Origin: a virus
Length of the DNA: 64,000 nt
Strand: one strand, 5' to 3'
IMG/VR virus record: IMGVR_UViG_3300032164_000006
Location: 1 to 64,000 of that record
A model generated the notes under the pieces. It ran no database searches. It had not been told where the DNA came from and was given only the letters and a program-made list of their open reading frames with translations. The translations under genes and the position numbers were made by a program. Positions within the stretch are counted from its first letter, which is position 1. Every line of letters begins with the position of its first letter. Shown piece after piece: positions 1,412-52,427 of the stretch.

Positions 1412-1850
1412 CATTTTTAGAAGACAGTTAGGGTCTTTCCTCTAACTGTCCGCAAACCTCAGTTTCTCCGAAAGTAGAGTGAAGGACAAACTGAAGACAC
1501 TTAAGGTCTTTCCAACCACTGTCCGCAAAAGGTCCTTCATTCTGTCTTTCTAGTCAGTTAAGGTCTTTCCTCTAACTGTCCGCAAACCTCAGTTTCCTCT
1601 AAAGTAGAGTGAAGAACAAACTGAAGACAGTTAGGGTCTTTCCCTCAACTGTCCGCGAAAGGTCCTTCATTCTGTAGTTCTAGTCAGTTAGGGTCTTTCC
1701 AACCACTGTCCGCAAACCTCAGTTTCCTCTAAAGTGGAGTGAAGAACAAACTGAAGACACTTAGGGTCTTTTTCTCAACTGTCCGCAAACCTCAGTTTCT
1801 CCGAAAGTAGAGTGAAGAACAAACTGAAGACACTTAGGGTCTTTCACTCA
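1412..1850. repeat. structured repeat array 1: palindromic core G(A/T)CA(G/C)TTA(G/A)GGTCTTT-variable-ACTGTCCGCAAA with two linker types; units of 73/57/73/57/73/73 bp plus a partial 7th core
   Basis: Cores start at 1423, 1496, 1553, 1626, 1683, 1756, 1829; linker A ~CCTCAGTTTCTCCGAAAGTAGAGTGAAGAACAAACTGAA, linker B ~AGGTCCTTCATTCTGTAGTTCTA. Confidence 0.95.
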
Positions 1851-2174
1851 AGGGTATTCTACTCGTTTAGAATACCCTTTTTTTATGATTAATTCTGCAA
1901 TTGAAACTCCATCCACAATCACGTCCGCTAGTATTCTAAAATACTTGCACCGACCAGCGTTCATTAGATCAATCCTCTTCGCACGAGAGAGGATACCATG
2001 GACGTAGATTTGAGCATCTAGTGCCGACTTGGTCTTGTCTCGCATTTCGTCTGTGTCTATCCCACGCACCCTTACTGGTATGCGGAGGCCTAGTAGTGGG
2101 TGGACTTCAGTTATGTTAACAGTTATGGTATCACCATCATAATTCTTGACATATTCTACATTCTCAAATTCCAT
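1848..2174 (-). CDS. thermonuclease (staphylococcal nuclease / SNase-like)
   Basis: YDGDTITV..VRVRGIDTDE..KYFRILADV..LIIKKGY matches the SNase DGDT/GID/YGR-like signatures; the only confidently assigned minus-strand gene. Confidence 0.85.
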   Translation of the reverse strand: MEFENVEYVKNYDGDTITVNITEVHPLLGLRIPVRVRGIDTDEMRDKTKSALDAQIYVHGILSRAKRIDLMNAGRCKYFRILADVIVDGVSIAELIIKKGYSKRVEYP

Positions 2175-2276
2175 TTGAACCCCATTCTGTTATTTCTAGA
2201 AATAGTATTTAATATAATTAGAGTTGTTCATTGGATGCTCATATTGTATTTATATATTTATAATTCTGGAGATGCA

Positions 2277-2468
2277 ATGGGTGGAAAACAGAAGACAATA
2301 GCAACGACTTTCAATATGTCTGTGAAATTAAAAGAAAAAGCACAGATTTATATTGCGTCAACAAACCGAGCTTTCAAGGAGAAGGGTCTTGGGGATAAGA
2401 CCAATCTAGGTATCCTCATAAATAAACTTCTTGAGCAATTCTTAGAGGAACAGGGTACGAATGAGTGA
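2277..2468 (+). CDS. small putative DNA-binding protein (ribbon-helix-helix-like) directly upstream of terminase
   Basis: RBS GGAG before ATG 2277; TTFNMSVKLKEKAQ..NLGILINKLLEQFL has a strand-helix-helix pattern; overlaps the terminase start. Confidence 0.5.
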   Translation: MGGKQKTIATTFNMSVKLKEKAQIYIASTNRAFKEKGLGDKTNLGILINKLLEQFLEEQGTNE

Positions 2469-3867
2469 TAGTGTTCCAGATATTGCAGAAGCCTTAGAGG
2501 TTAGAACAAGGCTAGAGGACCAATACCAGCAAGCTACTCTTGCGTCTTACGACGTAATCAGGGCATCTGTTCTGAAGTATGGCCGTTTGGACTACCTAAT
2601 GGAACACGTACTAGGCTATACTGTCACACCGTGTCACCTGTCAATGCTCATCCATCAGTCATCCAACAACAAGACCTTAACGCTGGCTCCTAGGGGTATC
2701 GGTAAGTCTGTGTGTCTTACCATCATCCGAGCTATCTACGAGATACTTATCAATCCAAACATTCGTATCCTCATTGTCTCGAACACTCAGCTTCAGGCAG
2801 AGATTTTTTTGAGAGAGATCAAAGATCACCTTAAGAGCAATGAGAAGCTGACTTCTATCTTTGGAGAACAGGCTGGGGAGAAGTGGGATAGCAGGGAAAT
2901 TAACGTCAAAAACAGAACAACCTTTGCCAAAGAATCAACCATCAGTTGTTGTGGTGTTGGTGGTGCAATCATCGGGAGACACTATGATCTTATCATCGGT
3001 GATGACTTAGTTGACGAAGAGAACTCTAGGACTGAGATCCAGCGTGAAAAATTTAAGATATGGTACTACAAAGTATTAGACCCAACTCTCGAGCCAGATG
3101 GTCGTTTTTTCATCCACGGAACTAGATACAACCCGTCTGACCACTACGCTCACTTGATGAATATAGATGACGACTACAAGGCTAGGATTTACCCTGCTAT
3201 CAGCAAAGACGGGATCTCCATATGGCCTAGCAAGATGCCTATAGAGTGGCTTGAAAAGAAGCGAAAGGCTATGGGTACAGCCATATTCAACACCCAATAC
3301 CAGAACGACACAACCATGATGGTTGGAAAAATATTCAAGCACGAGTGGATCAAATACTACGACTCCCTTCCAGAAAAATTGTTCATAGTGCAGGGGATAG
3401 ACCTAGCAATTGCACAGAAAAACACGTCTGACTATTTTTGTATTGCGACAGTTGGGAAGGATGAATTTGGTAGAGTTTACTTGATAGACCTATATAAAGA
3501 GCGTCTAACTTTCTTGCAGCAAGCGATGAAGATAATAGAAAAAAACAGCCAGTTTCGACCTAGACGTGTGTTCATCGAAGCCAACGCATATCAAAGTGCT
3601 CAGTCTCAGTTGTTGCAAGTCATTTCTAACGTTCCCGTAAAGCCTGTGATAACATTGAAAGATAAGGTAACACGAGCGTGGACACTGTCTAGTAAGTTCG
3701 AAAACGGAAACGTGTTTTTTCCAAAGTGGGGTGTGCAAGAATTGACAGACAACCTAATTCTATTTCCAGATTGCGAACACGATGATGATTTTGATGCGTT
3801 AGAAATTGCCGTATCCAACTTATTTCGCAAGATAAAAAAAGACAGAAGAGAGTTTGGAGTTATCTAG
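2461..3867 (+). CDS. terL: terminase large subunit
   Basis: Walker A APRGIGKS, Walker B IIGDDL, nuclease residues GIDLA..DY..HDDDFDA; first gene of the head module. Confidence 0.93.
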   Translation: MSDSVPDIAEALEVRTRLEDQYQQATLASYDVIRASVLKYGRLDYLMEHVLGYTVTPCHLSMLIHQSSNNKTLTLAPRGIGKSVCLTIIRAIYEILINPNIRILIVSNTQLQAEIFLREIKDHLKSNEKLTSIFGEQAGEKWDSREINVKNRTTFAKESTISCCGVGGAIIGRHYDLIIGDDLVDEENSRTEIQREKFKIWYYKVLDPTLEPDGRFFIHGTRYNPSDHYAHLMNIDDDYKARIYPAISKDGISIWPSKMPIEWLEKKRKAMGTAIFNTQYQNDTTMMVGKIFKHEWIKYYDSLPEKLFIVQGIDLAIAQKNTSDYFCIATVGKDEFGRVYLIDLYKERLTFLQQAMKIIEKNSQFRPRRVFIEANAYQSAQSQLLQVISNVPVKPVITLKDKVTRAWTLSSKFENGNVFFPKWGVQELTDNLILFPDCEHDDDFDALEIAVSNLFRKIKKDRREFGVI

Positions 3868-3882
3868 TTTTGGTGATAAAAT
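3854..3882 (+). promoter_or_regulatory. putative sigma70-type promoter for portal
   Basis: TTGGAG-17 bp-TAAAAT with an extended -10 TG. Confidence 0.4.
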
Positions 3883-3907
3883 CTGCCCGTCAGAAAGGTG
3901 AAAATAT

Positions 3908-5569
3908 ATGCAAAGACAAGCTCAAGCTATTGAAATTAACAAGAGTCAAGACAAGGATAAAACCAATAAACGGGTTCTCCGATCCATAGTTGTGAAAGCT
4001 GTGGGGGAAGAAGAATCTAATGCTATCATGGAAGACCCTTTCGAGGGTATTGACGGAATCATACAGCCTCCTTATCCGCTATTAGTTCTCTCCATGTTGA
4101 AAGAAAACTCGACCGAGCTTCGTCAATGTATAGACGCTATGTCTACAAATATTGATAGCTTTGGGTACAGACTTGTTGAGAAAAATGTTGAGGGAGATGA
4201 GCTTAAAAAAGCTGTTGTTGCAGAAAAAAACACACTCAAGCAATTTCTAGAGAACGTCAATTTCGAGGATGATATTACATCACTTCGCAGGGAGACGAGA
4301 AACGAATTGGAAGAGTGCGGTAACGCCTATTGGGAACTCGTTCCTTATCTACATAAGGAAGGCATTAGTTCTATCGAAAGACTACATGCTCACACTATGA
4401 GATTAGTCGCACTAGACGAAGAATCTATTAAGGTGGAGTTGGTGTATTACAATGAATATACACAGGCGACAGAGAAGAAAGTAATACGAAAAAAATTCAG
4501 AAGATTTGTGCAGAGCGTAGGTACAAAGAAGGTGTATTTTAAAGAGTGGGGTGACCCACGAAACATATCATCATTTGATGGGAAGGTTATCCCTGACAGC
4601 GAGCTACTTTCAAAGAAAAATGAGCTAGCAAATCCAGTATATCATTTTAGAATAAAATCAAACCGAAGCGTGTATGGCGTTCCAAGATACGTAGGCAATC
4701 TGTTCTCAATATATGGTTCTAGGGCATCTGAAGAAATAAATTTCGTGACGTTCCAAAATAACAATATACCAAGCATGATTGTAATGGTTTCAAATGGCCA
4801 GCTAACGGATGGATCAATCAAACGGATAGAAGAGTTTGTTGAGACGAAGGTCAAGGGTGAAAATAACCGCTCTAGTTTTCTAATTATAGAGGCAGAGCCA
4901 GCAGACGAAACACAGATAAATCCAGGTACCATGAAGATGGAAATCAAGGATCTATCTAGCGTCCAAAAGGACGACCAGTTGTTTCAAAACTATGACAAGA
5001 ATAATTCAGATAAGATACGCAGAAGCTGGAGGCTTCCTCCAATCTTCGTAGGTAAATCTGATGACTATAATAGGTCTACGGCACAAGAGTCTAGAAAGTT
5101 AGCAGACGAGCAGGTATTCGCACCGGAAAGAAAAGAGTTCGACAGAATAATGAACCGCATTCTCATCAAGGAATTTGGAGTAAAATATCACACCTTCGTG
5201 TCAAATTCAGCTAACGTCACAAACGACGAAGACTTGGTCAAAGTATTATCTGGTTCAGAGAAAACTGGTGGAGTTACACCGAACCTAGCTAGGCAAATCC
5301 TTTCTGACATCCTTAACAGGGAACTCCCATTATACGACAAAGATAAGATTGATTTTGATCCAGACATTCCAATGTCTATGACTCTGGTTGGCCTATCCAA
5401 GACTGTTGGTGGCAATGCTGCGACAGGTGTTATCGCTCCAAACCAGAATCAATTTCCGCTTGAAAAAGAAGACGAAGATGTAGCGGAAGAGATTACGAAA
5501 CGTGCATTGACTGACATTAGAAAGGCTCTATACAAAGAGATCTATAGTGAAATAATGTACGAGGTTTGA
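3908..5569 (+). CDS. portal protein (PBSX/XkdE-like)
   Basis: GNAYWE, YGVPRY and RLPPIFVG..DYNRSTA motifs; position after terminase. Confidence 0.9.
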   Translation: MQRQAQAIEINKSQDKDKTNKRVLRSIVVKAVGEEESNAIMEDPFEGIDGIIQPPYPLLVLSMLKENSTELRQCIDAMSTNIDSFGYRLVEKNVEGDELKKAVVAEKNTLKQFLENVNFEDDITSLRRETRNELEECGNAYWELVPYLHKEGISSIERLHAHTMRLVALDEESIKVELVYYNEYTQATEKKVIRKKFRRFVQSVGTKKVYFKEWGDPRNISSFDGKVIPDSELLSKKNELANPVYHFRIKSNRSVYGVPRYVGNLFSIYGSRASEEINFVTFQNNNIPSMIVMVSNGQLTDGSIKRIEEFVETKVKGENNRSSFLIIEAEPADETQINPGTMKMEIKDLSSVQKDDQLFQNYDKNNSDKIRRSWRLPPIFVGKSDDYNRSTAQESRKLADEQVFAPERKEFDRIMNRILIKEFGVKYHTFVSNSANVTNDEDLVKVLSGSEKTGGVTPNLARQILSDILNRELPLYDKDKIDFDPDIPMSMTLVGLSKTVGGNAATGVIAPNQNQFPLEKEDEDVAEEITKRALTDIRKALYKEIYSEIMYEV

Positions 5570-5570
5570 G

Positions 5571-5756
5571 ATGGACAAGGAAGTAGAAGAGGAGCGTAGG
5601 AAAAGAAAGAATGCAGACGTCATTAGCAGAATGCGAAGTGGTGATCCGCTCGTCCTAATCCCTATTTCCGATACATGGTTTCCACCTAGACCTTTGGTTA
5701 CGAAAGATAGAGAGAGCATAAAAAAACTCTATGGTACAAAAGATGATGATGAATAA
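5571..5756 (+). CDS. small hypothetical protein
   Basis: Fills the gap between portal and head morphogenesis genes; GAGG upstream. Confidence 0.45.
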   Translation: MDKEVEEERRKRKNADVISRMRSGDPLVLIPISDTWFPPRPLVTKDRESIKKLYGTKDDDE

Positions 5757-6735
5757 GAAATTTGCAGTATTTAAAGCAACGTCGATAGCACTAGACAAGG
5801 CTCTAAAGAGTCCGACTAGCATCAACACTGTTGCCTCGTTTGGTCTATACCTGTTCACCGAGTGGGCGAAGCTGGCAAAGCCTCTTATAAAAGAAGCCGG
5901 ATCCAAGTCCACAACTAGCGATAAGTGGGTAGAGTCGTTCATAAAAGAAATAGACTCGAAAATGGGGGAGTACCAAGACAATATTGCCAAGAACCAAGAA
6001 GAGTACATCGACTATCTTTACAAGTATTACAAGAACGAGTTTATAAAGACCAACAAGATAAAGATTGTCCAGAAGGCAAAGCTTCCCGATGTCAGTCCGG
6101 TACTCTGGCTGGATAAGGACGACGAGGCTCTGGCAGGTATCAAGAAGATGATGTCTAGGTCTACTGGTCAGTTCTATAAGGGGAACGTACAGAGGACTGT
6201 TGCGGAGAGCGTCCGTAAGAACATCTTAGAGAGTAATGAACCCCTAGACGTTGCAATACCAAAGATGCAAGCGGACCTAGCAAAAGCCTTGAAAATAGAG
6301 GCTGGTTCACTGGCATCTGAGGTCGTACCAGTAGGGTACAGAGGGACAGCCGAGAGCTACTTCTCCGGTCTAGCCGACCATACGGCTTCCATGGCTAGGA
6401 CCTCTGGAGCCTTAACAACCCTCACCGAAATTGACGCAAAGCAATTTGTCATCCGTTCAATCAAGTCTAGCAGAACCTGCCTAGGGTGTCTGGCTATGGA
6501 CGGGCAGACCTATAGCGTCGAGGTTGGTACTAAGCACATGAGCGAGATACTAGCTGCAAATAATGTCGAAGATCTCAAGGACATACAACCTTTCTTCCAC
6601 TTCAAAGCACCTAGTGATTACACCAAAGAGGGGTTGAAGGAAGCCAAGGTCAGTGCCGACGAGCTTGCCAAACAGAGTGGAGTCCAGATCCCTCCGTTTC
6701 ATTTTCGTTGCGAATGTTTTGTAGACATGGCTTAA
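5731..6735 (+). CDS. head morphogenesis protein (SPP1 gp7/Mu gpF-like)
   Basis: RTCLGCLAMDG and C-terminal PPFHFRCEC motif; position after portal; true start may be a few codons downstream. Confidence 0.8.
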   Translation: MVQKMMMNKKFAVFKATSIALDKALKSPTSINTVASFGLYLFTEWAKLAKPLIKEAGSKSTTSDKWVESFIKEIDSKMGEYQDNIAKNQEEYIDYLYKYYKNEFIKTNKIKIVQKAKLPDVSPVLWLDKDDEALAGIKKMMSRSTGQFYKGNVQRTVAESVRKNILESNEPLDVAIPKMQADLAKALKIEAGSLASEVVPVGYRGTAESYFSGLADHTASMARTSGALTTLTEIDAKQFVIRSIKSSRTCLGCLAMDGQTYSVEVGTKHMSEILAANNVEDLKDIQPFFHFKAPSDYTKEGLKEAKVSADELAKQSGVQIPPFHFRCECFVDMA

Positions 6736-6750
6736 TAATATATTCTAGAC

Positions 6751-6779
6751 TTGAACTTATATTCATCTAAACTTATAAT
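6751..6779 (+). promoter_or_regulatory. sigma70-type promoter upstream of the protease/scaffold/capsid operon
   Basis: TTGAAC-17 bp-TATAAT in an AT-rich intergenic gap. Confidence 0.65.
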
Positions 6780-6816
6780 TATAACCATCCATGATATTTG
6801 AAAAAGGAGTCACGCA

Positions 6817-7122
6817 ATGTCAAGTGGATCTCATAAAAAAGTTGGTTCGTTTATTGGAACAGGAGCAGCATTAACTATCGCTCTTGATTTTACCCCACGT
6901 TATGTCCGTTTATTGAACTTGACTGATCTTGCTTCAGCCGAGAAATTTGCAGACTCAGATCTTACTGGGAAAGAGGGTGGAGTGAAGCGTATTCTTGCTG
7001 GCGACATGTCGGCTCTCACAGCCGTTCAGGGTATCACCCTAGGCAAGCGTAGTTTCACCGTAGGAACAGACGCTGTTTGTAACGGTACAGGCGACCACGT
7101 TTCTTACGTTTGCGAAGAGTAA
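6817..7122 (+). CDS. hypothetical virion protein (possible head decoration/cement)
   Basis: Strong RBS AAGGAG; Gly/Thr-rich beta-type composition; located in the head operon. Confidence 0.55.
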   Translation: MSSGSHKKVGSFIGTGAALTIALDFTPRYVRLLNLTDLASAEKFADSDLTGKEGGVKRILAGDMSALTAVQGITLGKRSFTVGTDAVCNGTGDHVSYVCEE

Positions 7123-7125
7123 TTC

Positions 7126-8013
7126 ATGCAGATCAAGATTCAGACAATTAGGTTTTCTAAAGATTACTTTTCTAGCTACGAGAAATGTGCAGCGTGGTTG
7201 GAAAAGTTTTCTGTGCAGAATCTTGGTTATGAAGAACTGGAAAAGTTCTTCGTCTTCGAGCAAGTATCGAAAGAGAAATTCAACGATGCCTCTTTGCAGG
7301 AGATTACTCTTGGAAGCGGTGTTTCAGGTGTGGTTGGTGTTGCAATCTGCTGTGAGAATACCCTAGAAAACATAGTAGATGCGGACACAATAGTACCAAC
7401 CGAAATTGGTGTACCATCTAGTGGTACATTAGAGACAGAAGAGGATATGAAAGCGAAAGTGCTTTCTACATTCACTTCTGCATTGGACGCTCTGAAAGAA
7501 TACTTTGCAGCTGAGAGCGAAGAAGAAGACGAAGATGAGGGTGAGGGTGGAGGCGGGGGTGAAGATACTATGGCAGAAAAAAACATAGTATCCACGTCTA
7601 TCATAAAGGATTCATCCGCAGAGCCTAGAATGAAATTTAGAGTTCCCATCATTAAAAAGACAGCTCAGCGTATTGTTTTTGGTGAGGTTCTTGTTCCAGA
7701 TACAGTAGACGCACAAGGTCATATCTACTCCGAACTGGAGGTAGAAAAAGCGGCTCACTACTGGATGAAGGAATTCCAACAACTCGGTGAGATGCACAGT
7801 AAGATGCTTGTCGACAAGCAGTCGACAGTTTTAGAAAGTTATGTAGCTCCAGTTGATTTCGAAGTCGATGGTGGAACTCTGGTAAAGAAGGGTACATGGC
7901 TCTTAAAACTCTATGTCGATAACGATGACCTGTGGGACAAAGTATCGAGTGGCGAATACACTGGCTTCTCAATTCAAGGTCTAGCGGACGCAGAAAATCT
8001 AACGGGAGAATAA
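7126..8013 (+). CDS. prohead protease, XkdF-like (S78-related) domain at C-terminus
   Basis: RIVFGEVLVPDTVDAQGH..EVEKAAH..GEMH..ESYVAP..KKGTWL..GEYTGFSIQG matches the XkdF-type domain. Confidence 0.8.
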   Translation: MQIKIQTIRFSKDYFSSYEKCAAWLEKFSVQNLGYEELEKFFVFEQVSKEKFNDASLQEITLGSGVSGVVGVAICCENTLENIVDADTIVPTEIGVPSSGTLETEEDMKAKVLSTFTSALDALKEYFAAESEEEDEDEGEGGGGGEDTMAEKNIVSTSIIKDSSAEPRMKFRVPIIKKTAQRIVFGEVLVPDTVDAQGHIYSELEVEKAAHYWMKEFQQLGEMHSKMLVDKQSTVLESYVAPVDFEVDGGTLVKKGTWLLKLYVDNDDLWDKVSSGEYTGFSIQGLADAENLTGE

Positions 8014-8017
8014 CACA

Positions 8018-8866: not shown

Positions 8867-8880
8867 AACATTGGTATCTT

Positions 8881-8904
8881 CGAAGGGTATTTGTATCCCC
8901 TTCG
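8881..8904 (+). promoter_or_regulatory. intergenic hairpin upstream of the capsid RBS
   Basis: CGAAGGG...CCCTTCG inverted repeat; role (mRNA stability or processing) is inferred. Confidence 0.35.
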
Positions 8905-8942
8905 GGTAATTTAATTTATAGCATTTGGGAGGAGAATTTCAG

Positions 8943-10182: not shown

Positions 10183-10205
10183 TTGTTCACAATTGGGGAT
10201 AAATA

Positions 10206-42800: not shown

Positions 42801-43330
42801 GGTGGATTTACGAAGAATCTCTCCTGTCCACTGGACTTACTTATGGATCTGTGGTCACACTTCCGTTGGACTCAAAAAACGGTAACTCTGTGAAACAATA
42901 CCAGAATGGAGCAGGACACCTACAGGTAGAGGAAAATGGAGTCGTATTAAATTCGAGTCCAGTCGATGTATGTGGTGGGCTGTTTGATCCTTTGTCGTAT
43001 AATGGCTCCACTGGATTTGTTTCCCTAGCCGATGGCGTAGACATGAGTGCAGTATTGCACCAAGACACGTTTGTTGACGCCACTGGAACAGAGTTTGAGA
43101 TACTAGGTGGGCTCAGCGACGTTGACGGAAGCAAGGGATTTAAGATTGGACTTGCACTGACACCTGACTTGGGTTCCGGTGCTAGTATTGTGAGGAAGCA
43201 ATATGAGGAAGACGGTGCAGAATATTCGTGGCAATCTTCAATAACACTTAAGAAAAGGGTTCCAGCTGGTTCGGTCCTTAGATTTAGGATCTTACCAAAG
43301 GGGAACGCTGGAAGAACAGTTGACGCTTAA
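39833..43330 (+). CDS. tail fibre / receptor-binding adaptor protein (1165 aa) with a duplicated domain
   Basis: Follows the baseplate genes; two ~185-aa homologous segments flank a beta-helix-like region. Confidence 0.75.
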   Translation: MSTGQEKVNIFLKKFLTQQHITTNFLDYLHNLILEDHVALVGVNGVYSYPITGLSTLPDSITVLTPGETTPGDLNGPLAKMDDGLGHTMGLTTLQRTNIAVPNELGVKYNVGTKFCWLPSSTEINVRTGLIMWSLNAEAVGELNKPNAVSYHNNIFTLQVDNICSDMHQYGRKAKVYLETPVSQSSGDLSEEVIVVPHSMAVEKNGELGYIDIPTGQIQFFVLGKQYTIDTATPNPTVFTVTAIGEVNSGGTGYTRVSVDQDLRAYLVVDEPFITTGYNVVHLSGTLGQSLTPSLDPLDYNIYMGGVTVTSNNLQNDKNYVYLFSYIGTGVGNMPAQFNWVFQQQLPENVMQMLLNLKRWQEYVKQRDGFILRGGGQFTFAGGTLDWNDDFYIVNPYRGAYKIPASTITSIINDDVLYVKLPNEQDVIVDGTVVGEIWVKDNSRFNLEDTVLVGDVNSPRIPGVVKEVGAAGKLYLEDGLGNPLDLSMFLATTGSWVQPTLLELLKEQVNTGDLRPSGQRVIDEEVIVIAMAHSNSLIFKNGVLVLEDGDTGEIGNLPSGVNWVSNITELRNSVINTSDDNVALISPKVYSIATDLAVNKNLTWAGLSDRVIVEIAEAIQLSVKWDATTSSIHQNTEFKNIRFVGLGSGASILIDNTGATKPILVNFTDCVFTNLQISVTKGATTQPVILKFSGCRDIESNCNMVFPATHADDLLDLKEFKFDPQSGCYIHFGAPSTNPGAKASLEEVSGIEYFEALSSGRSNTVELRNCKGTLLGLSRIEILNPEQAIFLETSTDVDLSDEKQYLKHSAMTRLHGGGLLDYRGGAFSWSEDFSIIDPIYGVSKLTAGSLSGMVAGSILYAKFYRPQRLWSSGTVDGKAYVKETSQFNQDDSVLVGDHDSRVSGFILSAPVEDKLVVVDDGSGNVLDLSQYLLMGGSWIKRLNTVLVVGTIGVGDLARDADGLFSDDIFIVGVVDSKGIRLTNGVLVERWWIYEESLLSTGLTYGSVVTLPLDSKNGNSVKQYQNGAGHLQVEENGVVLNSSPVDVCGGLFDPLSYNGSTGFVSLADGVDMSAVLHQDTFVDATGTEFEILGGLSDVDGSKGFKIGLALTPDLGSGASIVRKQYEEDGAEYSWQSSITLKKRVPAGSVLRFRILPKGNAGRTVDA

Positions 43331-43356: not shown

Positions 43357-46300
43357 ATGACACATTCTAATCAAATATTGGACAGGAAAAACAGAGCACA
43401 CGTTCGGTCAACTGTTGGAGAAAATCTGGAGAATATTCTAGATTTGGTTGATGACAGATTGTCGTATCCAATGGAAGTTTCCATCGGCGGCTATACCATC
43501 ACAATTGGGAGTGGACTCCTGCAGTCCGCGGAATCAAACAGCCTAGATGGTAAATCCGACTCATATAGGGTTGGCGTTCCACCTCTAGCTGGACTTGAAA
43601 CGAAGCCAGTTGTGTCCAGTCTTGTGCTGAACACAGGAGCATACGACGGTGACTTTGAAGTACCAACCAATCCAACTCTAACTCCAAACCAATACATTAG
43701 AATGGGTATTGAGCTGCGACCAGATGGAAAATACTACGCTGTTTTTGGAACGCCGAGTGCGTTGCTGACAGGGTGTGGATATCCTCCATTTGCCATTGGT
43801 GCCTCAATCCAAATTATGGTCATCGACCTGCAAGATAGTGGTTCTGGTGGGAACTGGAGCTACAAGGTTCCAGCAAAAAAAGACGTCATAGTGTTCAACA
43901 ACCCTAGTGCTGGAGGCGGTGGAACACCCAACGCAAAGCTGATGGGTGGAGGCGTGTGGGCTGCATCAAATAATCTTGGTGACACACAATTAGAGTGGAA
44001 TGGTGTTGCGTATGTTTCTCTTCCGGGATTACAGAAAGAGCGAAACACAATACAGCCGGACATCATATCTTTGGCAGAAGACGAAGCTGCCTACGTTATC
44101 TTGAACAAGTTGGCTGGTCCAAACGAGGATCTCGTCGTTCAGAAAGACCTGTTCGTCAACATATTCCCATACAATCCAAATCTATTTTTAATAGCAAGGG
44201 GATTTGCTGGGGGAGTGCTGGTTGGTAACTCTTGCTTCAGCTTAATTCATGGAGAATCAAAAGAGCTGGACACTGGCATGTCTATCCAAAACAGGCAGCT
44301 ATTGGGGTCTGACGTAGATGAGACAACGTCTGTACCAGAATACTCTTTGCGTGGTGCTCCAGAAAGAACACTGGACGACACACAACCCGTCCTAGAAGCA
44401 TTGTCTAGCGTGGATGCAGAGATAGATAAGTTTTTTGGACAGCTGAGAATAATCCCACACGAAAGCGACACAAACAAAATAAGAATAACAGGGGTTGATT
44501 TCACCATGAAGGATGGCTCTATATTGAGCCAAGAGATTGCAAGTCTTCTTCTGAAATTCGACGGAGCAGTAGTAAACCTGACAACTGGTGGAGTGTTCGC
44601 CTCGAATGGGACAACCCCAATTGGAATAAACTTTACTCCAGCCACAATCCCTCTTTCGTCTTATAACTGGTATTCCATAGGTCTTGTCGCAAACACCATA
44701 ACAGCAAACGGAGCAATGACAGCTCAGTTGATTGTGCTGTCTGGTGGTCCAAACACATCGTCTTCGGCCACAACAATCCCTAGCTTTGCTGGCTCTAAAA
44801 AGGTTGGTCTGGTTCAGGTTCAAAACTCTGGCGGGAGCATTGTACGCACAGCCATACGACAGCTAGGTGCTGGAACTGGAAGCGGAGGCGGTATATCCAA
44901 CGCCAAGTTAATCAATGGTGGGAAATTCTACTGGACAGGAGAAATAGAATCTGTTTCCAGTAACTCTGTATCTCCAAACAGCGTCAACATCAACAATATG
45001 TTCTCGGATTGGAATGCTTGGCAGACCTTTGTTGCTGTCGGCTCTGGCTTGACAAAGTTCTCATCTACCGCTTTTTCTAGGTCTAACTCTGGGGTAACAG
45101 GTGTTCTTCGTGGCTATCTGTATGCTGTAAACCAAAGCACAGGTCTTCCAATTGCTACGCTCCTCGCTACGTCTATAAACACAGTACCAATTGAGACTCT
45201 GGAAACACAATCTTCCGTTAAGCAGTACACCCCCGTGACGTTCAATTTTTCTGGCGAAACTCTTGTTCCAGGAACCAGATATTGTGTTCTAGTCAAGGTT
45301 GTTTCTATCAGCGGTGGATGGATTGCACCCTACATAAACAACACGAACCCACTTCCAAACGAAAAGGCTGGCATACAATTTTCTGGGTTGAGTGAGACAG
45401 TTGGAATGGACATCAATATGTCTGTTGGTCAGCTAGGTGTTGGAACCCTCAGCTGGGATTCCGCTGCATACGTTTCAATGCCCGGACTAGACTTTGCAAG
45501 AAACACAATCCCAGTTGGATCTTCATCCCTAGGGTTGGACGAGGCTCTGTACGTCAAGGTATCCACACTCGACGGAGTCGCTGCAAACCTAACTGTAGAG
45601 CGAGGGAACATAACAGACATTTCGCCCTACGACTCAAGCATATTCATCTTTGCTGTTAAGACTGCCGAAGGTGTTGTTGTTGGCGACACGTTGCTTGCTG
45701 CTGGACAGTCGAGGAAGCTAGACGACAACAGAGTGTTTACGTTCAACAGTTCTTCTCCTGCAACTCTGACAACCCTAACGTCTACGAAATACGTTGGTGG
45801 ATATTATTTTCCACTTGGTGGGAGAATTAAGAGTGGGGTTGTAATCTACGGGAACGTGGTTTCTGATGGAAACCTAACTATCGAAACCAACGTCACAATC
45901 TTTGGAAGTGTCACTACAAACGGAAACAACTTAGAGTTTGATTCGACCTATGCTTCGGCAAACGAAACAATCAAAATCTACGGAGATTTACTTTCCGGAT
46001 GGACTTACTTCACGTCCGCAACAAACAGCCGACAACACACGCTAACAGTTTACGGAAGTGTCACAGCTGGATCATTCTATCTGGACACTCTAAACTCCAC
46101 ATCCGATATGCTCAGCATCGAAGTGAAAAGAAGTTTTATAACTTCGGAATTCAGTGCCTACACAAAAACAAACAACTCTGTAACTGTTGCGGCAATCACA
46201 GTCCGAGGCGACCTAATTTGCTCGCAAGGTTTGACAATCAAGCACCTAGAAACTTCAACAGCACAAGGATACAGAACAACCATCGGCGGGAACCTAATAG

Positions 46301-49300
46301 TTCAGGGTTCTCTGGTCTATGGCTTCTACGACTCGGCTACAGGAAACTCTAGCAGTTCGTCTCTAGGATACCTAGACGTTAGGGGTGTCACAAAAATAAG
46401 TGGAAACGCATCGTTCAACGCTAGGTCTGAACACGTCTTCTATGGTGAGACATACATCGGTGGAAACCTATTTGTCTATAGTGCTGTAAACAACGTCACC
46501 GAGACAAAAATAAAGTTCCGTGGAAATGTTTCTGTAAACGGAGAGGTCACCCTAGCTGCTCCAACTGGAACCTCAGTTGTTGGTCAATACACTATAGAGG
46601 CGTATTCTGAATTTAGAGCTAGAGCTTTGAAGAAGGTATATTCCAACACCTACGCTTCGGTACGAGGGTACGGAAAAACAGATTACAGGATACCCAAAAT
46701 CTACGCCGACGGAGTTCTGGCAGATAAGCAAGTTTACTTTCTAATGTCTGATTCTGCTGGCCAAATGTCGTTGGAAACATATAAGAACACCAACGTAGAT
46801 GTGAAGCTGGCGAACGTTGGATTTACAGTTCTCAAGACGCTGACAGACGGACTAGCGTTAATGAGAAAATACAACTGGAATAACGACCAAGCCTATGTTG
46901 TGCAGTATGGTAGAGACGACTCGATGTACGACATAGTCGTAGATGCTTCTGGGAAAGGAGACTACACCTCCCTTCGTCTTGCGTTGTTGGCGGCTGGAGA
47001 AAACGACACAATATTCATTCGCAATGGTGTCTATAACGAAACAACTGATTCCCTGTACCTGAAGTCAGGACAATCAATCATAGGTGAATCTAGAGACGGA
47101 GTTATCCTTACCACTAGCACGACAAGTTGGTTTTTCAGTGCATATAACAGAATTGGTGGACTCTACTCGACATATCCAGCAACAAGCAACCTAGGCTTCG
47201 ACTCTGCTACTGGCATCGGTACTGTATCCATAACTAACGGATCAAGACTTGTAACATACACTGGAACAACACACCCATCCGACGGAAAAATAGCCTACAT
47301 CCTAGGTGACTGGTACACAATCAGCAACACCGACACAGTGAACAAGACGTTCAACGTGGATAGGGATATTTTCAAGAGAACACAGACGGGTCTACCTTGG
47401 AGATTTGCGACAACACAAGGAGGGGTAGACTACTCGGTCACACCAAACCAATTCCTGAGAATAAAGAACCTAACCTACAAAGCAACAACAGCGGCTTCAT
47501 TCTTGTATGCGAATGCGTGTGCAAACATTGAAGTAGAAAACGTAGATGTTATTTCTACAGCATGGAACAGCTCGTCAAACGCAATAATCTACGGACAAAA
47601 CATGACGAACGTTAGTGCTAGAAATATCCGCTTCTACAACAAGAACACAACTGCCGGAGCCGACGAACCGAACGTGCTCTATGTCTATGCTGCGTGGGAT
47701 TGCTCGTTTACGGAATGGGAAGTCTACGGTGGAAAATACATGAGAATGGATGGTTCCGCTGGAGCCGCGATGAACTACCACTGTAAGGTCCACTTCAGTA
47801 GATTCGAAAGCGACGCTCTAATGTGGCTGTCTCTAGGCTTCTGTCAGGAATGTGATTTTTCGTTTGGCGTTATAAATTGCAATCAGTTCTGTCAGAGCGA
47901 ATTCAACTTCCACAAGTGTCGGCTAGATTTCTTCGAAACAAGAATGTTTGGGGGTAGCTCATATATCCGAGGACAAGACAACATAGTCAACTTTGGGAAT
48001 ATGTATCTCGACGGTGCTTCTTTCTACGTTAATAAGGCTCAAGCATCTGGGTATCTTTCCAAAAACATTCTTGTATCTGGAAACGTCATTGGAACTGGAA
48101 CACTCTATCTAGACGACAGCGTGTACCTAGGAGACAGCGTCTACGTCCAAACTTTGGGTGGAACAGCTCCAGCACGAACACCAACACCAAGAACAAGTGC
48201 TGTTGTTTTGGATGCTGCTGGAGGAGGCGACGCAACAACGCTCGCAGCTGCGATAACCAAGGCTGGAAACTACGGATCAATCTTTGTTAGAAACGGAACG
48301 TACACCATGTCTAGTGGTGTCAGCTTATCTATTGGCCAAACAATCTTAGGTGAGTCCAAGAACGGAGTTATCCTAGAGTTTACTGGTGGATATATCTCAA
48401 TGCCATATCCAGTTTCATACAACATAGGAACTAGCTTCACAAACGGAGATCCAAGAACACCGAGCACAACCTACGCTTGCGGATTTCTGACGCTAACCAC
48501 AAGTTCCAGAACCATTGCATACTCTGGAGACATCGCTCCAACTGTAGGCAATATTCTACGAGTACAGGGCGAATGGTTCGAGGTCATGACTGTAGATAGT
48601 GGTGCGAAAACATTCACAGTAGACAAAGACGTTCGTCACGCTCCGTTCTCCAATGTTTGGTGTAAATTCTACCAAAAACAATATGGAGTAAACATATCCC
48701 AAAATCCATCTATCAGGTCTTCTATTAAAAACCTGACAGTGAAAATGACGTCAGGAAACATGGCGATAAACGTGGGTTCTTGCTGCGACGTAGAGGACGT
48801 TGACATTATAGACGTTGCAGCTAGTGGATACGGTGGAATGTTGCAAGGTGGGCAAGGGATTTGCGACACGAACGTGCGTAGGGTAAAAATCATAAACGCA
48901 AACATCAACTCTGGTGCAACAACAACATATCTGCGAGCAATATATTTGAGTGGAGCACAAGATTGTACCTTCGAGAACATAGAGTGTCACCACACCAACA
49001 ATGACATGATAGGTGGAGCTAGTTTCAACAATCCAGTGATAAACTGTAAATTCCACTTTCTGCGTAAAGTTGGATCAGGTCCAGCGTTCCAACCACTCGG
49101 CTACATGACAGAGTGTGACCTGACAATAGACTTCATGGAACACACCAACCTCCAAGACGTCAGCGCCTCTTGCTGCCTATATAACTGTCGGGTTAAGTTT
49201 GGCCAATCCAGATTCACTGGAAACGTCTATATGTATTCCCTAGGCTCTACATTCGACCTAGGTCATATGTGGAACGTCGGCTACGCTTATGTCATTAGTG

Positions 49301-52005
49301 GTTCACCAACAAAGACCCCACTCAACAAAGTAAACTCTGGACGGCTATATGGCTCCACAGCTTTAGAAGGTCTACTCAGCGTCGATGCATCTGTTATCCT
49401 AACCGACAACATCCAAGTAAACCAACTTTCTGGAGCACCATACTCGTCCCCAACAAAAAAGATGTGGACTATTGTTGCTGCAGACGGAACTGGCGACTAC
49501 ACGAGCATCAGCTCTGCTTGTTCTAACATGCCAGAGGGAACTACATTTTTCATAAGAAACGGAGCCTACACCGAAGGTGTAATTTCTGCAAAAGCAGGAC
49601 AGAAATTCATAGGGGAATCAAAGGCTGGAGTCCGAATAACGGCTTCTAGTGGTGTGCTGTTCCAGCCAACTGGATACTATGCTGGTGGATGGCGTTCGTC
49701 TCTCAACTCGACAACATACGAAGAATTTTCATCGACAGAAAACCTCGGTCTAGCTTCGACAACCCACAACAGTACGACAGTCTCGTACAGCGGAACAGGT
49801 TCGAACCCATCTGCGAACCAGTATGTAAGGATGTGCGGAGAGTGGTACAAGTTAATCAGCGTAGACACGGGTCTAAAAACATTCGTAATAGACAGAGCGT
49901 TTACAAAAGGAACCTACACCCAAATTCCAGTGCTTATGATGTCATTAAATACCGGATTCTACGAACTCCACACTTATCAAAGTGGTGGAATGGAATTCAA
50001 AAACATGACCATACTTTCTGGAACGCAAACCAACTTCCAAGGCTTCAACATCACATCGCAGGTTGGTCTTGTTATAGAAAACATAGACGTCATCGGTGAG
50101 AACGCCTCGGCTGGTTTCACTCCATTCTACCTGTACTCTTGCGTAGGGATGAGAATGAGAGATTGCGGACAGTACGCTATGGGAACAACAACACTCAACT
50201 CAAAGTCTCAGATAACATCTGGATGGGAAAACGTAATAGAAAATCACGTTATCTTTGGTGGATACCAAACAGAGATCTACGGCTCTGCACAGTCTCCAGC
50301 ATATAGGTGCAAGTATCACTTCAGAAACATCACTTGCACCGATGCAATGTTCCAATTCTTTAGGGCAATGTATGAGTGCGAGATTGAAGTTGAGCGTGGA
50401 CAAGCCGAAAGAGTTACATCTCAGACAGGAGACGCTCCATCTAGGTGTGTATTCCGCTTTGGAAAGATACGCACAACCCAAGGAAGCATAATCAAGAGTA
50501 TAGGCTGTCAGTTCCATATTGGAGATTGGATTGATAGTGCTGGATCTACGTTATCGCTCGGAAAAGGTTCTAACGGAGTCAGCTTTACTCCATACAACAA
50601 GTTGATGTCTGGAAACTTTGGCGGAGCGTTGTCAGTTGACGGAAGTGTTGTAATAACAGATGGATTCCAATACACCGGAACTCTAACCGGAACTCCAGCC
50701 TACAAACCTATTCTTAGTGCTGCTCCAAAACAATATGACTATGTTGTAGATCCTGCTGGAGGGGGAAGCCACACAACAATCCAAGCTGCTGTCGCCGCTG
50801 CTATAGACGGGAAAACCATATACGTTAGGAACGGGAACTACGACATGCTAGGTGTTTCCGCATCGGCAGCTAATGGCTTGTCTATTATCGGTGAAACAAT
50901 GGACGGTGTGAGAATCTCATCTAGTTCGGATATGTTCGGTGTTTCTGGGGGAGGCCTCATGATGCGAGCTAGAACACAGCTGATAGCAAACCAGACAACC
51001 TTTGATACCACAACCAATATTGGAACTGTGACTGTAACGAACGGGAGTACAGCCGTTGTTTACACTGGAGATCTTACTGGAATTAGCGGCTCAATCACAA
51101 TAGGGGATGCTATTGCTCTAGGCTCGTCTGAGTTGTATTCTGTTGCTGGAATAAACACAGGAACAAAAACAATCACACTCAATACGGCATACATTGGAGC
51201 CTCTGGTGCTGGACTACCATGTTTCATAACATTCGGTACTCCTACAAACTTAACGAGATCATGTTTCACTCTGAAAAATGTAACTCTCATTTTGACTGCA
51301 GGAAACCAATGTATCCAAGCAAATAATGCCTACAAATTGCATCTCGAAAACATCACATGTTTCCATGCAAACACAGGCGGATCTGGTCTTGTTACGATGC
51401 AAAGTGGATTCAGAAACAAATTAATCAACGTCAGGACAATTTCAACATCTGCTGCTGGATATGCTGCTTTCAATTGCACCGGAGCGTGGGGACTAGAATT
51501 TGTGAACGTTGAATGTGAAAGATCAAAATACAACTATTGGGGTGGTGGAACAACAATTCCTAGTCTGTATTGTGACCTCCACTTCAAGAGGATTACAGAA
51601 TCACCTGCTCTATTTTTCCTAGGATGGGGTGGTCAAGCATTCTGTTCACTTGTGATAGACCATATTGAGGGGTGTCGTGGTGGGTTCATGCAAGATGGCG
51701 GTGGAACAGCTGAAGACCTATGGCATTTTTATGTGGAAATAAAACGTATGTCGAATTGTGCTGGACAGATATCTCTGTTCGGTAGGAATGTAACATTCGT
51801 TGGTGGGCATCTACATCATGCTGGTTATTTCAGGCTTAAATCTAGGCAGGGTTCGACAAACAACGTGATGATGAGTGGGATGTTTACATCAATCCCAGCC
51901 AGCAATTTGGAGGTGGATAGCTCCACAATTATTTGTTCGGCTGTTAACTATCCGACAGGTGCTCTGTCTGGTAGTCCAAAACGCAACGATGGTTTCGCGT
52001 TCTAA
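43357..52005 (+). CDS. giant tail fibre/tailspike (2882 aa) with four tandem pectin-lyase-like beta-helix modules
   Basis: Four VV[DA]xxGxG[DS]xT[ST][LI]xxA..I[FY][IV]RNGxY..[IF][IL]GE-like cap motifs at ~423-aa spacing; RBS AAGGAG. Confidence 0.85.
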   Translation: MTHSNQILDRKNRAHVRSTVGENLENILDLVDDRLSYPMEVSIGGYTITIGSGLLQSAESNSLDGKSDSYRVGVPPLAGLETKPVVSSLVLNTGAYDGDFEVPTNPTLTPNQYIRMGIELRPDGKYYAVFGTPSALLTGCGYPPFAIGASIQIMVIDLQDSGSGGNWSYKVPAKKDVIVFNNPSAGGGGTPNAKLMGGGVWAASNNLGDTQLEWNGVAYVSLPGLQKERNTIQPDIISLAEDEAAYVILNKLAGPNEDLVVQKDLFVNIFPYNPNLFLIARGFAGGVLVGNSCFSLIHGESKELDTGMSIQNRQLLGSDVDETTSVPEYSLRGAPERTLDDTQPVLEALSSVDAEIDKFFGQLRIIPHESDTNKIRITGVDFTMKDGSILSQEIASLLLKFDGAVVNLTTGGVFASNGTTPIGINFTPATIPLSSYNWYSIGLVANTITANGAMTAQLIVLSGGPNTSSSATTIPSFAGSKKVGLVQVQNSGGSIVRTAIRQLGAGTGSGGGISNAKLINGGKFYWTGEIESVSSNSVSPNSVNINNMFSDWNAWQTFVAVGSGLTKFSSTAFSRSNSGVTGVLRGYLYAVNQSTGLPIATLLATSINTVPIETLETQSSVKQYTPVTFNFSGETLVPGTRYCVLVKVVSISGGWIAPYINNTNPLPNEKAGIQFSGLSETVGMDINMSVGQLGVGTLSWDSAAYVSMPGLDFARNTIPVGSSSLGLDEALYVKVSTLDGVAANLTVERGNITDISPYDSSIFIFAVKTAEGVVVGDTLLAAGQSRKLDDNRVFTFNSSSPATLTTLTSTKYVGGYYFPLGGRIKSGVVIYGNVVSDGNLTIETNVTIFGSVTTNGNNLEFDSTYASANETIKIYGDLLSGWTYFTSATNSRQHTLTVYGSVTAGSFYLDTLNSTSDMLSIEVKRSFITSEFSAYTKTNNSVTVAAITVRGDLICSQGLTIKHLETSTAQGYRTTIGGNLIVQGSLVYGFYDSATGNSSSSSLGYLDVRGVTKISGNASFNARSEHVFYGETYIGGNLFVYSAVNNVTETKIKFRGNVSVNGEVTLAAPTGTSVVGQYTIEAYSEFRARALKKVYSNTYASVRGYGKTDYRIPKIYADGVLADKQVYFLMSDSAGQMSLETYKNTNVDVKLANVGFTVLKTLTDGLALMRKYNWNNDQAYVVQYGRDDSMYDIVVDASGKGDYTSLRLALLAAGENDTIFIRNGVYNETTDSLYLKSGQSIIGESRDGVILTTSTTSWFFSAYNRIGGLYSTYPATSNLGFDSATGIGTVSITNGSRLVTYTGTTHPSDGKIAYILGDWYTISNTDTVNKTFNVDRDIFKRTQTGLPWRFATTQGGVDYSVTPNQFLRIKNLTYKATTAASFLYANACANIEVENVDVISTAWNSSSNAIIYGQNMTNVSARNIRFYNKNTTAGADEPNVLYVYAAWDCSFTEWEVYGGKYMRMDGSAGAAMNYHCKVHFSRFESDALMWLSLGFCQECDFSFGVINCNQFCQSEFNFHKCRLDFFETRMFGGSSYIRGQDNIVNFGNMYLDGASFYVNKAQASGYLSKNILVSGNVIGTGTLYLDDSVYLGDSVYVQTLGGTAPARTPTPRTSAVVLDAAGGGDATTLAAAITKAGNYGSIFVRNGTYTMSSGVSLSIGQTILGESKNGVILEFTGGYISMPYPVSYNIGTSFTNGDPRTPSTTYACGFLTLTTSSRTIAYSGDIAPTVGNILRVQGEWFEVMTVDSGAKTFTVDKDVRHAPFSNVWCKFYQKQYGVNISQNPSIRSSIKNLTVKMTSGNMAINVGSCCDVEDVDIIDVAASGYGGMLQGGQGICDTNVRRVKIINANINSGATTTYLRAIYLSGAQDCTFENIECHHTNNDMIGGASFNNPVINCKFHFLRKVGSGPAFQPLGYMTECDLTIDFMEHTNLQDVSASCCLYNCRVKFGQSRFTGNVYMYSLGSTFDLGHMWNVGYAYVISGSPTKTPLNKVNSGRLYGSTALEGLLSVDASVILTDNIQVNQLSGAPYSSPTKKMWTIVAADGTGDYTSISSACSNMPEGTTFFIRNGAYTEGVISAKAGQKFIGESKAGVRITASSGVLFQPTGYYAGGWRSSLNSTTYEEFSSTENLGLASTTHNSTTVSYSGTGSNPSANQYVRMCGEWYKLISVDTGLKTFVIDRAFTKGTYTQIPVLMMSLNTGFYELHTYQSGGMEFKNMTILSGTQTNFQGFNITSQVGLVIENIDVIGENASAGFTPFYLYSCVGMRMRDCGQYAMGTTTLNSKSQITSGWENVIENHVIFGGYQTEIYGSAQSPAYRCKYHFRNITCTDAMFQFFRAMYECEIEVERGQAERVTSQTGDAPSRCVFRFGKIRTTQGSIIKSIGCQFHIGDWIDSAGSTLSLGKGSNGVSFTPYNKLMSGNFGGALSVDGSVVITDGFQYTGTLTGTPAYKPILSAAPKQYDYVVDPAGGGSHTTIQAAVAAAIDGKTIYVRNGNYDMLGVSASAANGLSIIGETMDGVRISSSSDMFGVSGGGLMMRARTQLIANQTTFDTTTNIGTVTVTNGSTAVVYTGDLTGISGSITIGDAIALGSSELYSVAGINTGTKTITLNTAYIGASGAGLPCFITFGTPTNLTRSCFTLKNVTLILTAGNQCIQANNAYKLHLENITCFHANTGGSGLVTMQSGFRNKLINVRTISTSAAGYAAFNCTGAWGLEFVNVECERSKYNYWGGGTTIPSLYCDLHFKRITESPALFFLGWGGQAFCSLVIDHIEGCRGGFMQDGGGTAEDLWHFYVEIKRMSNCAGQISLFGRNVTFVGGHLHHAGYFRLKSRQGSTNNVMMSGMFTSIPASNLEVDSSTIICSAVNYPTGALSGSPKRNDGFAF

Positions 52006-52427
52006 CTGTCTTCAGTTTGTTCTTCACTCTACTTTCGGAGAAACTGAGGTTTGCCGACAGTTAGAGGAAAGACCCTAACTGTCTTCAGTTTGTTCTTCAC
52101 TCTACTTTCGGAGAAACTGAGGTTTGCGGACAGTGGTTGGAAAGACCCTAACTGACTAGAACTACAGAATGAAGGACCTTTTGCGGACAGTTAAGAAAAA
52201 GACCCTAACTGTCTTCAGTTTGTTCTTCACTCCACTTTAGAGGAAACTGAGGTTTGCCGACAGTTGAGTGAAAGACCTTAACTGACTAGAACTACAGAAT
52301 GAAGGACCTTTTGCGGACAGTTAGAGGAAAGACCCTAAGTGTCTTCAGTTTGTTCTTCACTCTACTTTGAGTGAAATTGGCGTTTGCCGACAGTTGAGAA
52401 AAAGACCCTAACTGTCTTCTAAAAATG
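52002..52427. repeat. structured repeat array 2: inverted copy of array 1, same A-B-A-B-A-A order
   Basis: On the minus strand cores start at 52416, 52343, 52286, 52213, 52156, 52083, 52010 (spacings 73/57/73/57/73/73); same outer flank CATTTTTAGAA. Confidence 0.95.

Follow-up and report, generated by a model that had tools for sequence, protein, structure and literature searches.

Two inverted arrays of a short palindromic repeat stand at either end of the virion genes of an uncultured phage, in a stretch of 64,000 nucleotides (IMG/VR virus record IMGVR_UViG_3300032164_000006, positions 1 to 64,000; hereafter the window). Our analysis makes it highly probable that these arrays, at sites we call S1 and S2, belong to a family of five or more copies of a single ~0.45-kb non-coding cassette, which was copied whole and is specific to one lineage, and that their position on both sides of the virion genes is incidental. 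On the function of the cassette we are more guarded: we tentatively propose that an array offers a group of predicted binding sites to a sequence-specific DNA-binding protein; the full statement, with spread and DNA-binding mechanism included, is put forward with a shade less reserve, though still tentatively. The window takes in the opening 64 kb of a virus record that is 72,056 bp long, with completeness estimated at 54%; the phage is of myovirus type, and its closest cultured kin are distant (terminase at most ~30% identical among 50,697 deposited phage genomes).

The two arrays are built as follows.

1412..1850, plus strand: array 1 (S1), consisting of the flank CATTTTTAGAA, six full 37-bp cores and a seventh core cut after 24 nt; linkers in the order A (36 bp), B (20 bp), A, B, A, A; unit starts at 1420, 1493, 1550, 1623, 1680, 1753 and 1826
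52002..52427, minus strand: array 2 (S2), the reverse-complement cassette, with linkers in the order A-B-A-B-A-A and a seventh core cut after 12 nt

An initial annotation of this DNA had described inverted array copies with a 73/57/73/57/73/73 spacing, a truncated seventh core and a common outer flank, and each of these details was borne out. The outer flank CATTTTTAGAA occurs at 1412-1422 on the plus strand and at 52427-52417 on the minus strand. Spacing between successive GGTCTTT anchors is 73/57/73/57/73/73 in array 1 and 73/57/73/57/73 in array 2, where it is followed by linker A and the seventh core of 12 nt. Tandem Repeats Finder reports periods of 130 (2.8 copies, 90% matches) and 73 for 1425-1851, and periods of 73 and 130 (87% matches) for 52002-52414. 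Each unit, whether of 73 or 57 bp, contains a 28-bp imperfect palindrome, and all cores within one array are direct repeats; as 73, 57 and 130 are all not multiples of three, the arrays are non-protein-coding. BLAST aligns the full 439-bp array 1 to the minus strand of 52002-52427 at 92% identity (E 7.8e-171), and in an ungapped comparison in register 384 of 426 positions are identical (~90%), with exact runs of 69, 48, 35, 28 and 27 bp in common. Allowing two mismatches or fewer, a core pattern matches the window 14 times, six times in each array and twice elsewhere (with two mismatches in both cases), against 2.36 matches expected by chance; a total of 14 was reached in 0 of 100 shuffles.

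Scanning a metagenome collection with the core pattern returned three stretches on two contigs (L012 and L013), in both orientations, which add three arrays to the two in the window.

L012 9510-9652, minus strand: S3, a fragment of ~140 bp covering one 130-bp period, beginning and ending within linker A
L013 7665-8127, plus strand: S4, spaced 73/57/73/57/73/73 and also holding a seventh core
L013 8823 to the contig end, then L014 1-175, plus strand: S5, inside which the assembly breaks

Nucleotide similarity between L012 or L013 and the window is confined to the arrays. Nevertheless, L012, L013 and L014 most likely continue the genome of the window, to judge from their sequence and order: L012 starts with the same 22 nt with which the phage's own 72-kb record ends, and the tail of that record, L012, L013 and L014 are all colinear with a relative, G004, whose other end overlaps window 53238-63998. 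The further arrays lie at unrelated intergenic positions elsewhere in what is probably the same genome, and by the criterion that the initial annotation itself had set, the bracketing of the virion module would be coincidental. S1, S2 and S4 agree in the order of their units and in letters tied to unit position (for example, C at core position 8 of unit 2), which argues that the cassette was copied whole and not grown separately at each site. The left end is common to S1, S2 and S5, and the right ends fall at differing points of the unit.

That one repeat was placed at several positions by the assembler, or mis-joined, is extremely improbable. One assembly does break within S5, and the arrays exceed typical short-read length. 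Against this, both flank-to-array junctions of array 2 recur without differences in contigs of the independent public run X1 (its record 1 extends to 52031 and its record 8 begins at 52398), and the left junction is also exact in run X2. Flanks of the other arrays are carried by loose ends at array 2: run X1 has those of S4 and S5, run X2 those of S3 and S4, and run X3 those of S1. Compared pairwise, the copies show 38-44 differing columns among 418 aligned, and S4, which was assembled independently, has the same architecture. The contigs of these runs are short and break inside the arrays, covering the junctions of array 2 and not the internal order of its units; those of X1-X4 over 50500-54000 contain no joints, and X2 and X3 lack cover of 52489-54000, neither of which we count as evidence. 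Summed contig depth within an array is no measure of copy number, and with repeats this nearly identical, assemblers may assign some letters inside the arrays to the wrong copy.

The distribution of the cassette among close relatives points in the same direction. Our comparison set consists of four relatives' records (~114 kb in total, all contig fragments, at roughly 70-94% nucleotide identity). Terminases 98, 94 and 80% identical to that of the window are encoded by three records. L004 (94% nucleotide identity) aligns to window 1-1173 and 1842-7970, and the intervening 668 bp are replaced by 192 bp with a different small open reading frame (ORF); in L005 (80-84%) the S1 interval is 74 bp. 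In G004, which is 86-92% identical to L012-L014, S3 corresponds to ~12 bp, S4 to 227 bp that include a small ORF, and S5 to 145 bp. An array query found nothing beyond E 0.06 in the four records, and a profile of the 130-bp double unit detected no relic in them (best match E 0.68). Presence and absence thus differ between close relatives at all four comparable sites (S1, S3, S4 and S5). The filled sites are replacements with ragged ends rather than clean insertions, with no terminal inverted repeats or target duplications. At junction 1, gene order and orientation are kept in relatives that lack array 1. Taken on their sequences, the arrays appear to be an accessory, lineage-specific component outside the conserved plan of the phage and, because relatives do without them, their flanking of the virion module would be incidental.

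Differences between copies are strongly clustered. Across the 25 full cores, the heptamer that follows GGTCTTT reads CCTCTAA in 10, TTCTCAA in 6, CCAACCA in 5, CACTCAA in 2, and CCCTCAA and TTCTTAA in 1 each, and the core blocks on either side of it vary little or not at all; in linker A, a pentamer behaves like the heptamer and has alleles in common with it. Between S1 and S2, 27 of 42 differing columns fall within 62 of 418 columns (binomial 4e-13), with 95.8% identity outside them, and when variable segments are counted as single events 7 of 10 differ, as against 15 of the 356 other columns. Conservation of the palindrome is asymmetric in that the inner half of the 3' arm varies while its partner letters are fixed, and a G/C change at core position 8 is never compensated. 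Folding energies of the cores range from -3.9 to -16.7 kcal/mol; on their own strand, 8 of the 25 cores lie no more than half a standard deviation from shuffled sequence in their folding, and consensus folds of 14 units on the two strands are weak (-5.4 and -7.4 kcal/mol, with a double change in 2 and 1 of 16 pairs). Because the energies vary so widely and compensatory change is missing, the hairpin itself is not preserved. Array 1 folds better than shuffled sequence on both strands (z -4.2 and -4.4), and GAAGAC-like half-sites recur in both orientations. What is preserved is a bipartite, asymmetric sequence around a free 7-bp spacer.

The mechanism that we propose is that a protein reads in each core a bipartite motif, asymmetric and invariant, whose two parts are separated by 7 bp that vary freely. 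An array would then present ~7 to 20 protein sites and might have a local action, as boundary, roadblock or initiation element, modelled on the homologous regions (hrs) of baculoviruses or on bacterial interspersed mosaic elements (BIMEs). The phage encodes a set of general recombination genes (UvsX-like, SbcC-like, SbcD-like and a RuvC-like resolvase), and copies could have spread during infection by homologous or microhomology recombination via these UvsX-like, SbcCD-like and RuvC-like enzymes, entering variable intergenic slots as variable cargo does in T4-type genomes. Recombination is the likeliest route of spread given that no mobility enzyme, terminal inverted repeats or target duplications were found and that the ends are ragged. 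As a side effect, the arrays may serve as substrates for general recombination, S1 and S2 giving rise to inversion and S4 and S5 to deletion or circle formation; given exact shared runs of up to 69 bp, homologous recombination might plausibly, on physical grounds, invert the segment between S1 and S2 in a passive way. A bolder version strikes us as quite unlikely. In it, the arrays are hr-like cis-elements of a tailed phage whose bipartite motif is bound by a protein of phage or host; they serve as accessory replication or recombination starts, transcription boundaries or decoys against a DNA-binding defence of the host, were acquired as a set by one lineage, and also allow whole gene modules to be inverted or excised.

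Several points weigh against the account we favour. The same-genome placement of L012-L014 rests on the 22-nt overlap, on colinearity and on co-occurrence in runs, with no spanning read. Protein-based scans for relatives spanning the S2 junction found none, and the absence comparison covers S1, S3, S4 and S5; in these scans G004 ends at the equivalent of window 53238, and two other matching records were rejected as kin, being without the terminase. The linkers, conserved at ~95%, could reflect recent copying and not constraint, and the clustered variation could arise from a mutational process in quasi-palindromes. Finally, no binding protein was found: a ParB-like pair, whose genes sit in an apparent DNA-modification cluster, is 92% identical at the nucleotide level in the array-less G004, and we rejected ParB-like proteins as binders of the array on the ground that their genes are also found there.

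All five arrays are intergenic and fill their gaps edge to edge. The features that adjoin the two arrays of the window are these.

1070-1390, plus strand: longer ORF in the same frame as the 76-codon ORF below, with no PHROG match
1160..1390, plus strand: 76-codon ORF just upstream of array 1, with no significant Pfam match
1848..2174, minus strand: endonuclease-like ORF (phrog_452, E 3.4e-10), convergent on array 1
1850..1889, plus strand: intrinsic-terminator-like hairpin (12-pair stem, 1850-1879) and T run, directly 3' of array 1
43357..52005, plus strand: 2882-codon ORF, the last gene of the virion block, with its stop codon (52003-52005) inside the final letters of array 2
52428..52568, strand not applicable: 141-bp spacer from array 2 to a plus-strand gene at 52569-53483

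The 76-codon ORF and array 1 together occupy the variable slot that holds a different small ORF in L004 and 74 bp in L005. The stop codon of the endonuclease-like ORF (1848-1850) lies inside the final letters of the truncated seventh core of S1, and the hairpin 3' of array 1 is also kept in the array-less L004 and L005. A consensus scan found no plus-strand promoter or terminator in the 141-bp spacer. Of the arrays outside the window, S3 lies between convergent genes and begins ~5 nt past a stop codon, S4 lies between co-directional genes (1 nt past the stop of a 48-codon ORF and 9 nt short of the next start), and S5 separates divergent genes. At S1, S4 and in part S5 the array has the same strand as the genes beside it, and at S2 and S3 the other one, so there is no fixed relation to transcription. 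Searching with a sigma-70-type consensus only, we found no promoter-like hexamer pairs inside S1 or S2, the 5 and 2 sites found all lying outside; the 2 in the S2 region are fewer than in shuffles (mean 5.0), and a weak minus-strand promoter-like site at 52649-52620 (9 of 12 matches) points into S2.

The main rival to the DNA-binding reading is that the arrays act as RNA. After the model of REP325, an array of repetitive extragenic palindromes (REPs), they would be hairpin arrays in 3' untranslated regions, on either strand, that attenuate read-through and protect upstream mRNA. This has in its favour the better-than-shuffled folding of array 1 on both strands, the fact that four of the five arrays (S1, S2, S3 and S4) touch or nearly touch a stop codon, the lack of any other plus-strand terminator-like site 3' of the virion block, and the precedent of REP325 itself, reported to be a partial terminator and mRNA stabiliser. 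We nonetheless consider it unlikely, for hairpin strength is unpreserved over the range given above, with 8 of 25 cores near shuffles, the consensus folds are weak and nearly devoid of double changes, the conserved non-palindromic linkers are left unexplained, S5 sits between divergent genes, and in a compact genome almost any intergenic element comes to lie beside a stop codon. No better do we rate the chances of a selfish or neutral satellite, without function for the phage and duplicated by recombination in variable intergenic slots. Such a satellite would fit the variable presence at all four comparable sites, the occupation of slots that in relatives hold small ORFs of unassigned function, the ragged ends and the reduction of S3 to a 140-bp fragment. 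It accords less well with the lack of a mobilising enzyme, terminal inverted repeats or target duplications, with an architecture of six and a bit units that is identical in three copies although tandem repeats of this kind usually shift copy number fast, and with variation that is strongly clustered and not uniform. A phage genome with ~2 kb of inert DNA would, moreover, be unusual.

Stricter analogy with baculoviruses would make the arrays true hr counterparts, that is, required replication origins or late-transcription enhancers bound by a phage-encoded factor, which we regard as improbable. Units of ~73 bp with a 28-bp imperfect palindrome, 2-7 to an array, in at least five dispersed arrays of both orientations, do recall hr anatomy (PMC4535591). 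S1 and S2 mark the points where the replication and virion modules meet, and the phage encodes a DnaB-like helicase and a DnaC-like loader, yet no initiator was recognised. However, the relatives share these replication and virion genes (at roughly 70-94% nucleotide identity) and have neither arrays nor relics; as they manage without arrays, a role as required origin or enhancer is excluded. GC skew carries no origin signal and climbs steadily along with the coding strand. [quoted passage not shown] The 37-nt core and 73-nt period are within the range of CRISPR arrays, a terminator follows directly after S1, the weak promoter-like site noted above is aimed into S2 and the reverse strand is GGA-rich by reading. 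On the other hand, the linkers repeat and the variable part is inside the core, the reverse of a CRISPR array; there is no Rfam family, the core is absent from the genomes of 185,579 species, promoter-like sites in the S2 region are below the shuffle mean, and orientation with respect to neighbouring genes is mixed. More improbable still is the programmed switch that the initial annotation had entertained, with S1 and S2 as crossover sites that flip or exchange the 50-kb virion cassette. Inverted copies of 426-439 bp are certainly there, with exact shared runs of a length that suffices for general homologous recombination, and UvsX-like and RuvC-like genes are encoded. This idea found no support in our results: three further copies are located elsewhere, the 72 kb contain neither invertase nor integrase, order and orientation at junction 1 are unchanged in relatives without array 1, and inversion would set every virion gene against a gene direction that is otherwise uniform with no evident gain. 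A role as packaging sites, also raised earlier, is unlikely for at least five copies in both orientations. The suggestion of a dispersed hr-like or non-autonomous repeat fared better, in that the arrays are indeed dispersed, variable in length and absent in close relatives. [quoted passage not shown]

How does the cassette compare with known repeats? In one description, seven hrs, each with three to eight 64-bp units containing a 24-bp imperfect palindrome, act as origin and enhancer (PMC4535591). The likeness consists in tandem units of ~60-75 bp centred on an imperfect palindrome, 2-8 to an array, in several non-coding arrays spread over a genome of ~130 kb (same source); the phage shares the tandem units with central imperfect palindrome and the several dispersed arrays, at no fewer than five sites if L012-L014 continue the genome. 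The differences are another host and virus realm, with no sequence relation, two alternating linkers in a fixed A-B-A-B-A-A order in the phage, and absence of the phage arrays in close relatives; further, no binding factor like IE-1 is known for the phage arrays, and the likeness is one of anatomy. In Escherichia coli, REP325 comprises six repeats of two palindromic units each and functions as a partial terminator and mRNA stabiliser, and REP positions differ between strains (PMC4550694; bioRxiv 10.64898/2026.03.23.713779). BIMEs and REP325 resemble the cassette as extragenic imperfect palindromes of ~35-40 bp in regular mosaics with specific linkers beside gene ends (PMC2817692, PMC4550694), and in the phage too the extragenic imperfect palindromic units are joined by linkers, A and B, with all five arrays intergenic. 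In contrast to the palindromic units of BIMEs, which alternate in orientation, the phage cores of one array all have the same direction, and whereas BIMEs occur in hundreds of chromosomal copies linked to a Y1 transposase, the phage has at least five copies and no PF01797 in 72 kb. The cassette is therefore not a BIME, its cores not alternating and a Y1 transposase being absent.

Evolutionary behaviour brings in a third comparison, with the promoter early stem-loops (PeSLs) of T4-type phages. Like the arrays, these are dispersed, conserved intergenic repeats in variable slots, tied to indel or replacement differences, and direct copies of them flank small gene cassettes as S4 and S5 do (PMC2839356, PMC4122927). 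The arrays likewise mark indel or replacement differences at each of the comparable sites. A PeSL, however, is a single promoter with a stem-loop terminator, whereas the phage arrays have 2-7 units and no promoter-like hexamer pair inside S1 or S2; the cassette is not a PeSL since it lacks this promoter-terminator composite. The phage lineage is also unrelated, its best cultured terminase match being ~30% identical. The invertible segments of Mu and P1, and shufflons, have short crossover sites with an adjacent serine or tyrosine recombinase and swap fibre ends within segments of a few kb. Inverted repeats near the end of a tail-fibre gene, the basis of the flip idea, are the likeness here; the phage repeats differ in being ~430 bp rather than short sites, in lying 50 kb apart, in having further copies and in the absence of a recombinase (no PF00239 or PF00589 in 72 kb). 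Nor do they behave as CRISPR, for the linkers are repeated (A counted 14 times, B 7 times) and the letters that vary are inside the core. In anatomy the cassette comes closest to baculovirus hrs, with BIMEs and REP325 also near, and in evolutionary behaviour to PeSLs. Dispersed intergenic repeats known in phages include promoters, operators and PeSLs. We assign the cassette to the dispersed intergenic repeats of viral genomes, and not to the hr, BIME or PeSL families. The initial annotation recognised no described phage element with this layout, and this holds within our literature search, which had subscription journals outside its reach and returned PeSLs as the only described phage counterpart to a two-linker palindrome mosaic.

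If the arrays do bind a protein, they would be a counterpart in a prokaryotic virus of the baculovirus hr regions. Close relatives with and without arrays provide a natural comparison for what such elements do, with gene-expression boundaries, replication starts and module exchange as the targets. For annotation, the lesson is that the symmetry around these virion genes is not to be read as a switch.

Searches for the cassette elsewhere were negative. Among the 50,697 phage records BLASTN found nothing that matches array 1, the window has 0 Rfam matches at gathering thresholds, and in a set of 185,579 bacterial and archaeal species, each represented by a single genome, the core has 0 matches; within these collections the cassette is consequently not a borrowed host REP or CRISPR repeat. 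A single IMG/VR stretch matching the core pattern was dismissed as chance, being a coding region without repeats, and a two-core pattern had 0 matches in IMG/VR. In the species genomes the looser two-core pattern matched 5 stretches, two of which (a 65-bp tandem repeat in Paraflavitalea and a coding repeat on a Sphingobacteriales contig) were judged unrelated. The Paraflavitalea repeat (L023 6056-6616) is an array of 8.9 copies with GACTTTCC-like microrepeats downstream of a gene, and its fit to the loose pattern is accidental. The initial annotation had seen no recombinase in the window, and this is confirmed and extended to the whole 72-kb record, in which Y1 transposase (PF01797), resolvase (PF00239) and integrase (PF00589) are all absent, with control genomes responding to the same searches; mobility enzymes are also absent among 30 scanned ORFs of L012, L013, L014 and L015. 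Other ideas were tried and rejected: a restriction-site decoy, since GAAGAC and CTGAAG are not avoided outside the arrays; reverse-strand mini-ORFs, since one heptamer allele brings in a stop codon; a mimic of a tRNA anticodon arm, since the variable heptamer is in the 3' arm and not the loop; and a diversity-generating retroelement or shufflon, since reverse transcriptase and recombinase are both missing and the array is outside coding sequence.

As to the genes of the window, nearly all are on the plus strand, and ARAGORN detects 0 tRNAs in it. Terminase, portal, protease, virion protein, sheath, tape measure and baseplate wedge lie between arrays 1 and 2; to the left of array 1 are a ligase BRCT end and a DUF932 protein, and to the right of array 2 are helicases, the DnaC-like loader, primase, exonuclease and polymerase. 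Gene annotation on both sides thus agrees with the earlier description of virion genes inside the arrays and DNA-metabolism genes outside. Two very large ORFs that close the virion block, of 2882 codons (43357-52005) and 1165 codons (39833-43330), are without a PHROG match; IMG/VR scans with the shorter of them, and with the last 500 residues of the longer, returned no relatives. A 51-bp tandem repeat (window 32367-32476, 2.2 copies, 84% matches) lies within the ORF at 31245-32708. To the right of array 2, window 53578-54456 is a 292-codon ORF whose counterpart in L007 starts like a lipoprotein signal, and 39%-identical homologues of it occur in two unrelated virus or provirus records without the terminase.

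Further observations concern the relatives and the contigs that carry S3 to S5. In G004 (L007 2484-3300), a SNF2/ResIII-type helicase gene contains ~817 extra bases that the window lacks (at 55732/55733), which could be an intron, an intein or a homing-endonuclease insertion. L004 has an 18-bp unit repeated 8.3 times at 98% identity (584-733), upstream of the region aligned to the window. On L012, the stretch at 1338-6576 has weak or sub-threshold matches to two ParB-like proteins and to TET-associated glycosyltransferase-like, APH-like kinase, HAD phosphatase-like and radical-SAM-like proteins, and from these matches it resembles a cluster for DNA base hypermodification; at L014 400-933 there is a very weak match to a 5-hydroxymethyldeoxyuridine (5-hmdU) DNA kinase (E 0.058). 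Beside S3, on the minus strand, are two adjacent paralogous ORFs of ~140 codons (L012 9714-10136 and 10213-10629) with no family match, a pair that is also present in G004. At the site of S5, the divergent intergenic region of G004 (L016 ~3130-3190) contains two copies of the 16-bp GTGCCTATGTAAGCAC, 23 bp apart, which may be an operator pair, and the right end of S5 joins within the second GTGCCTATGTAAGCAC copy.

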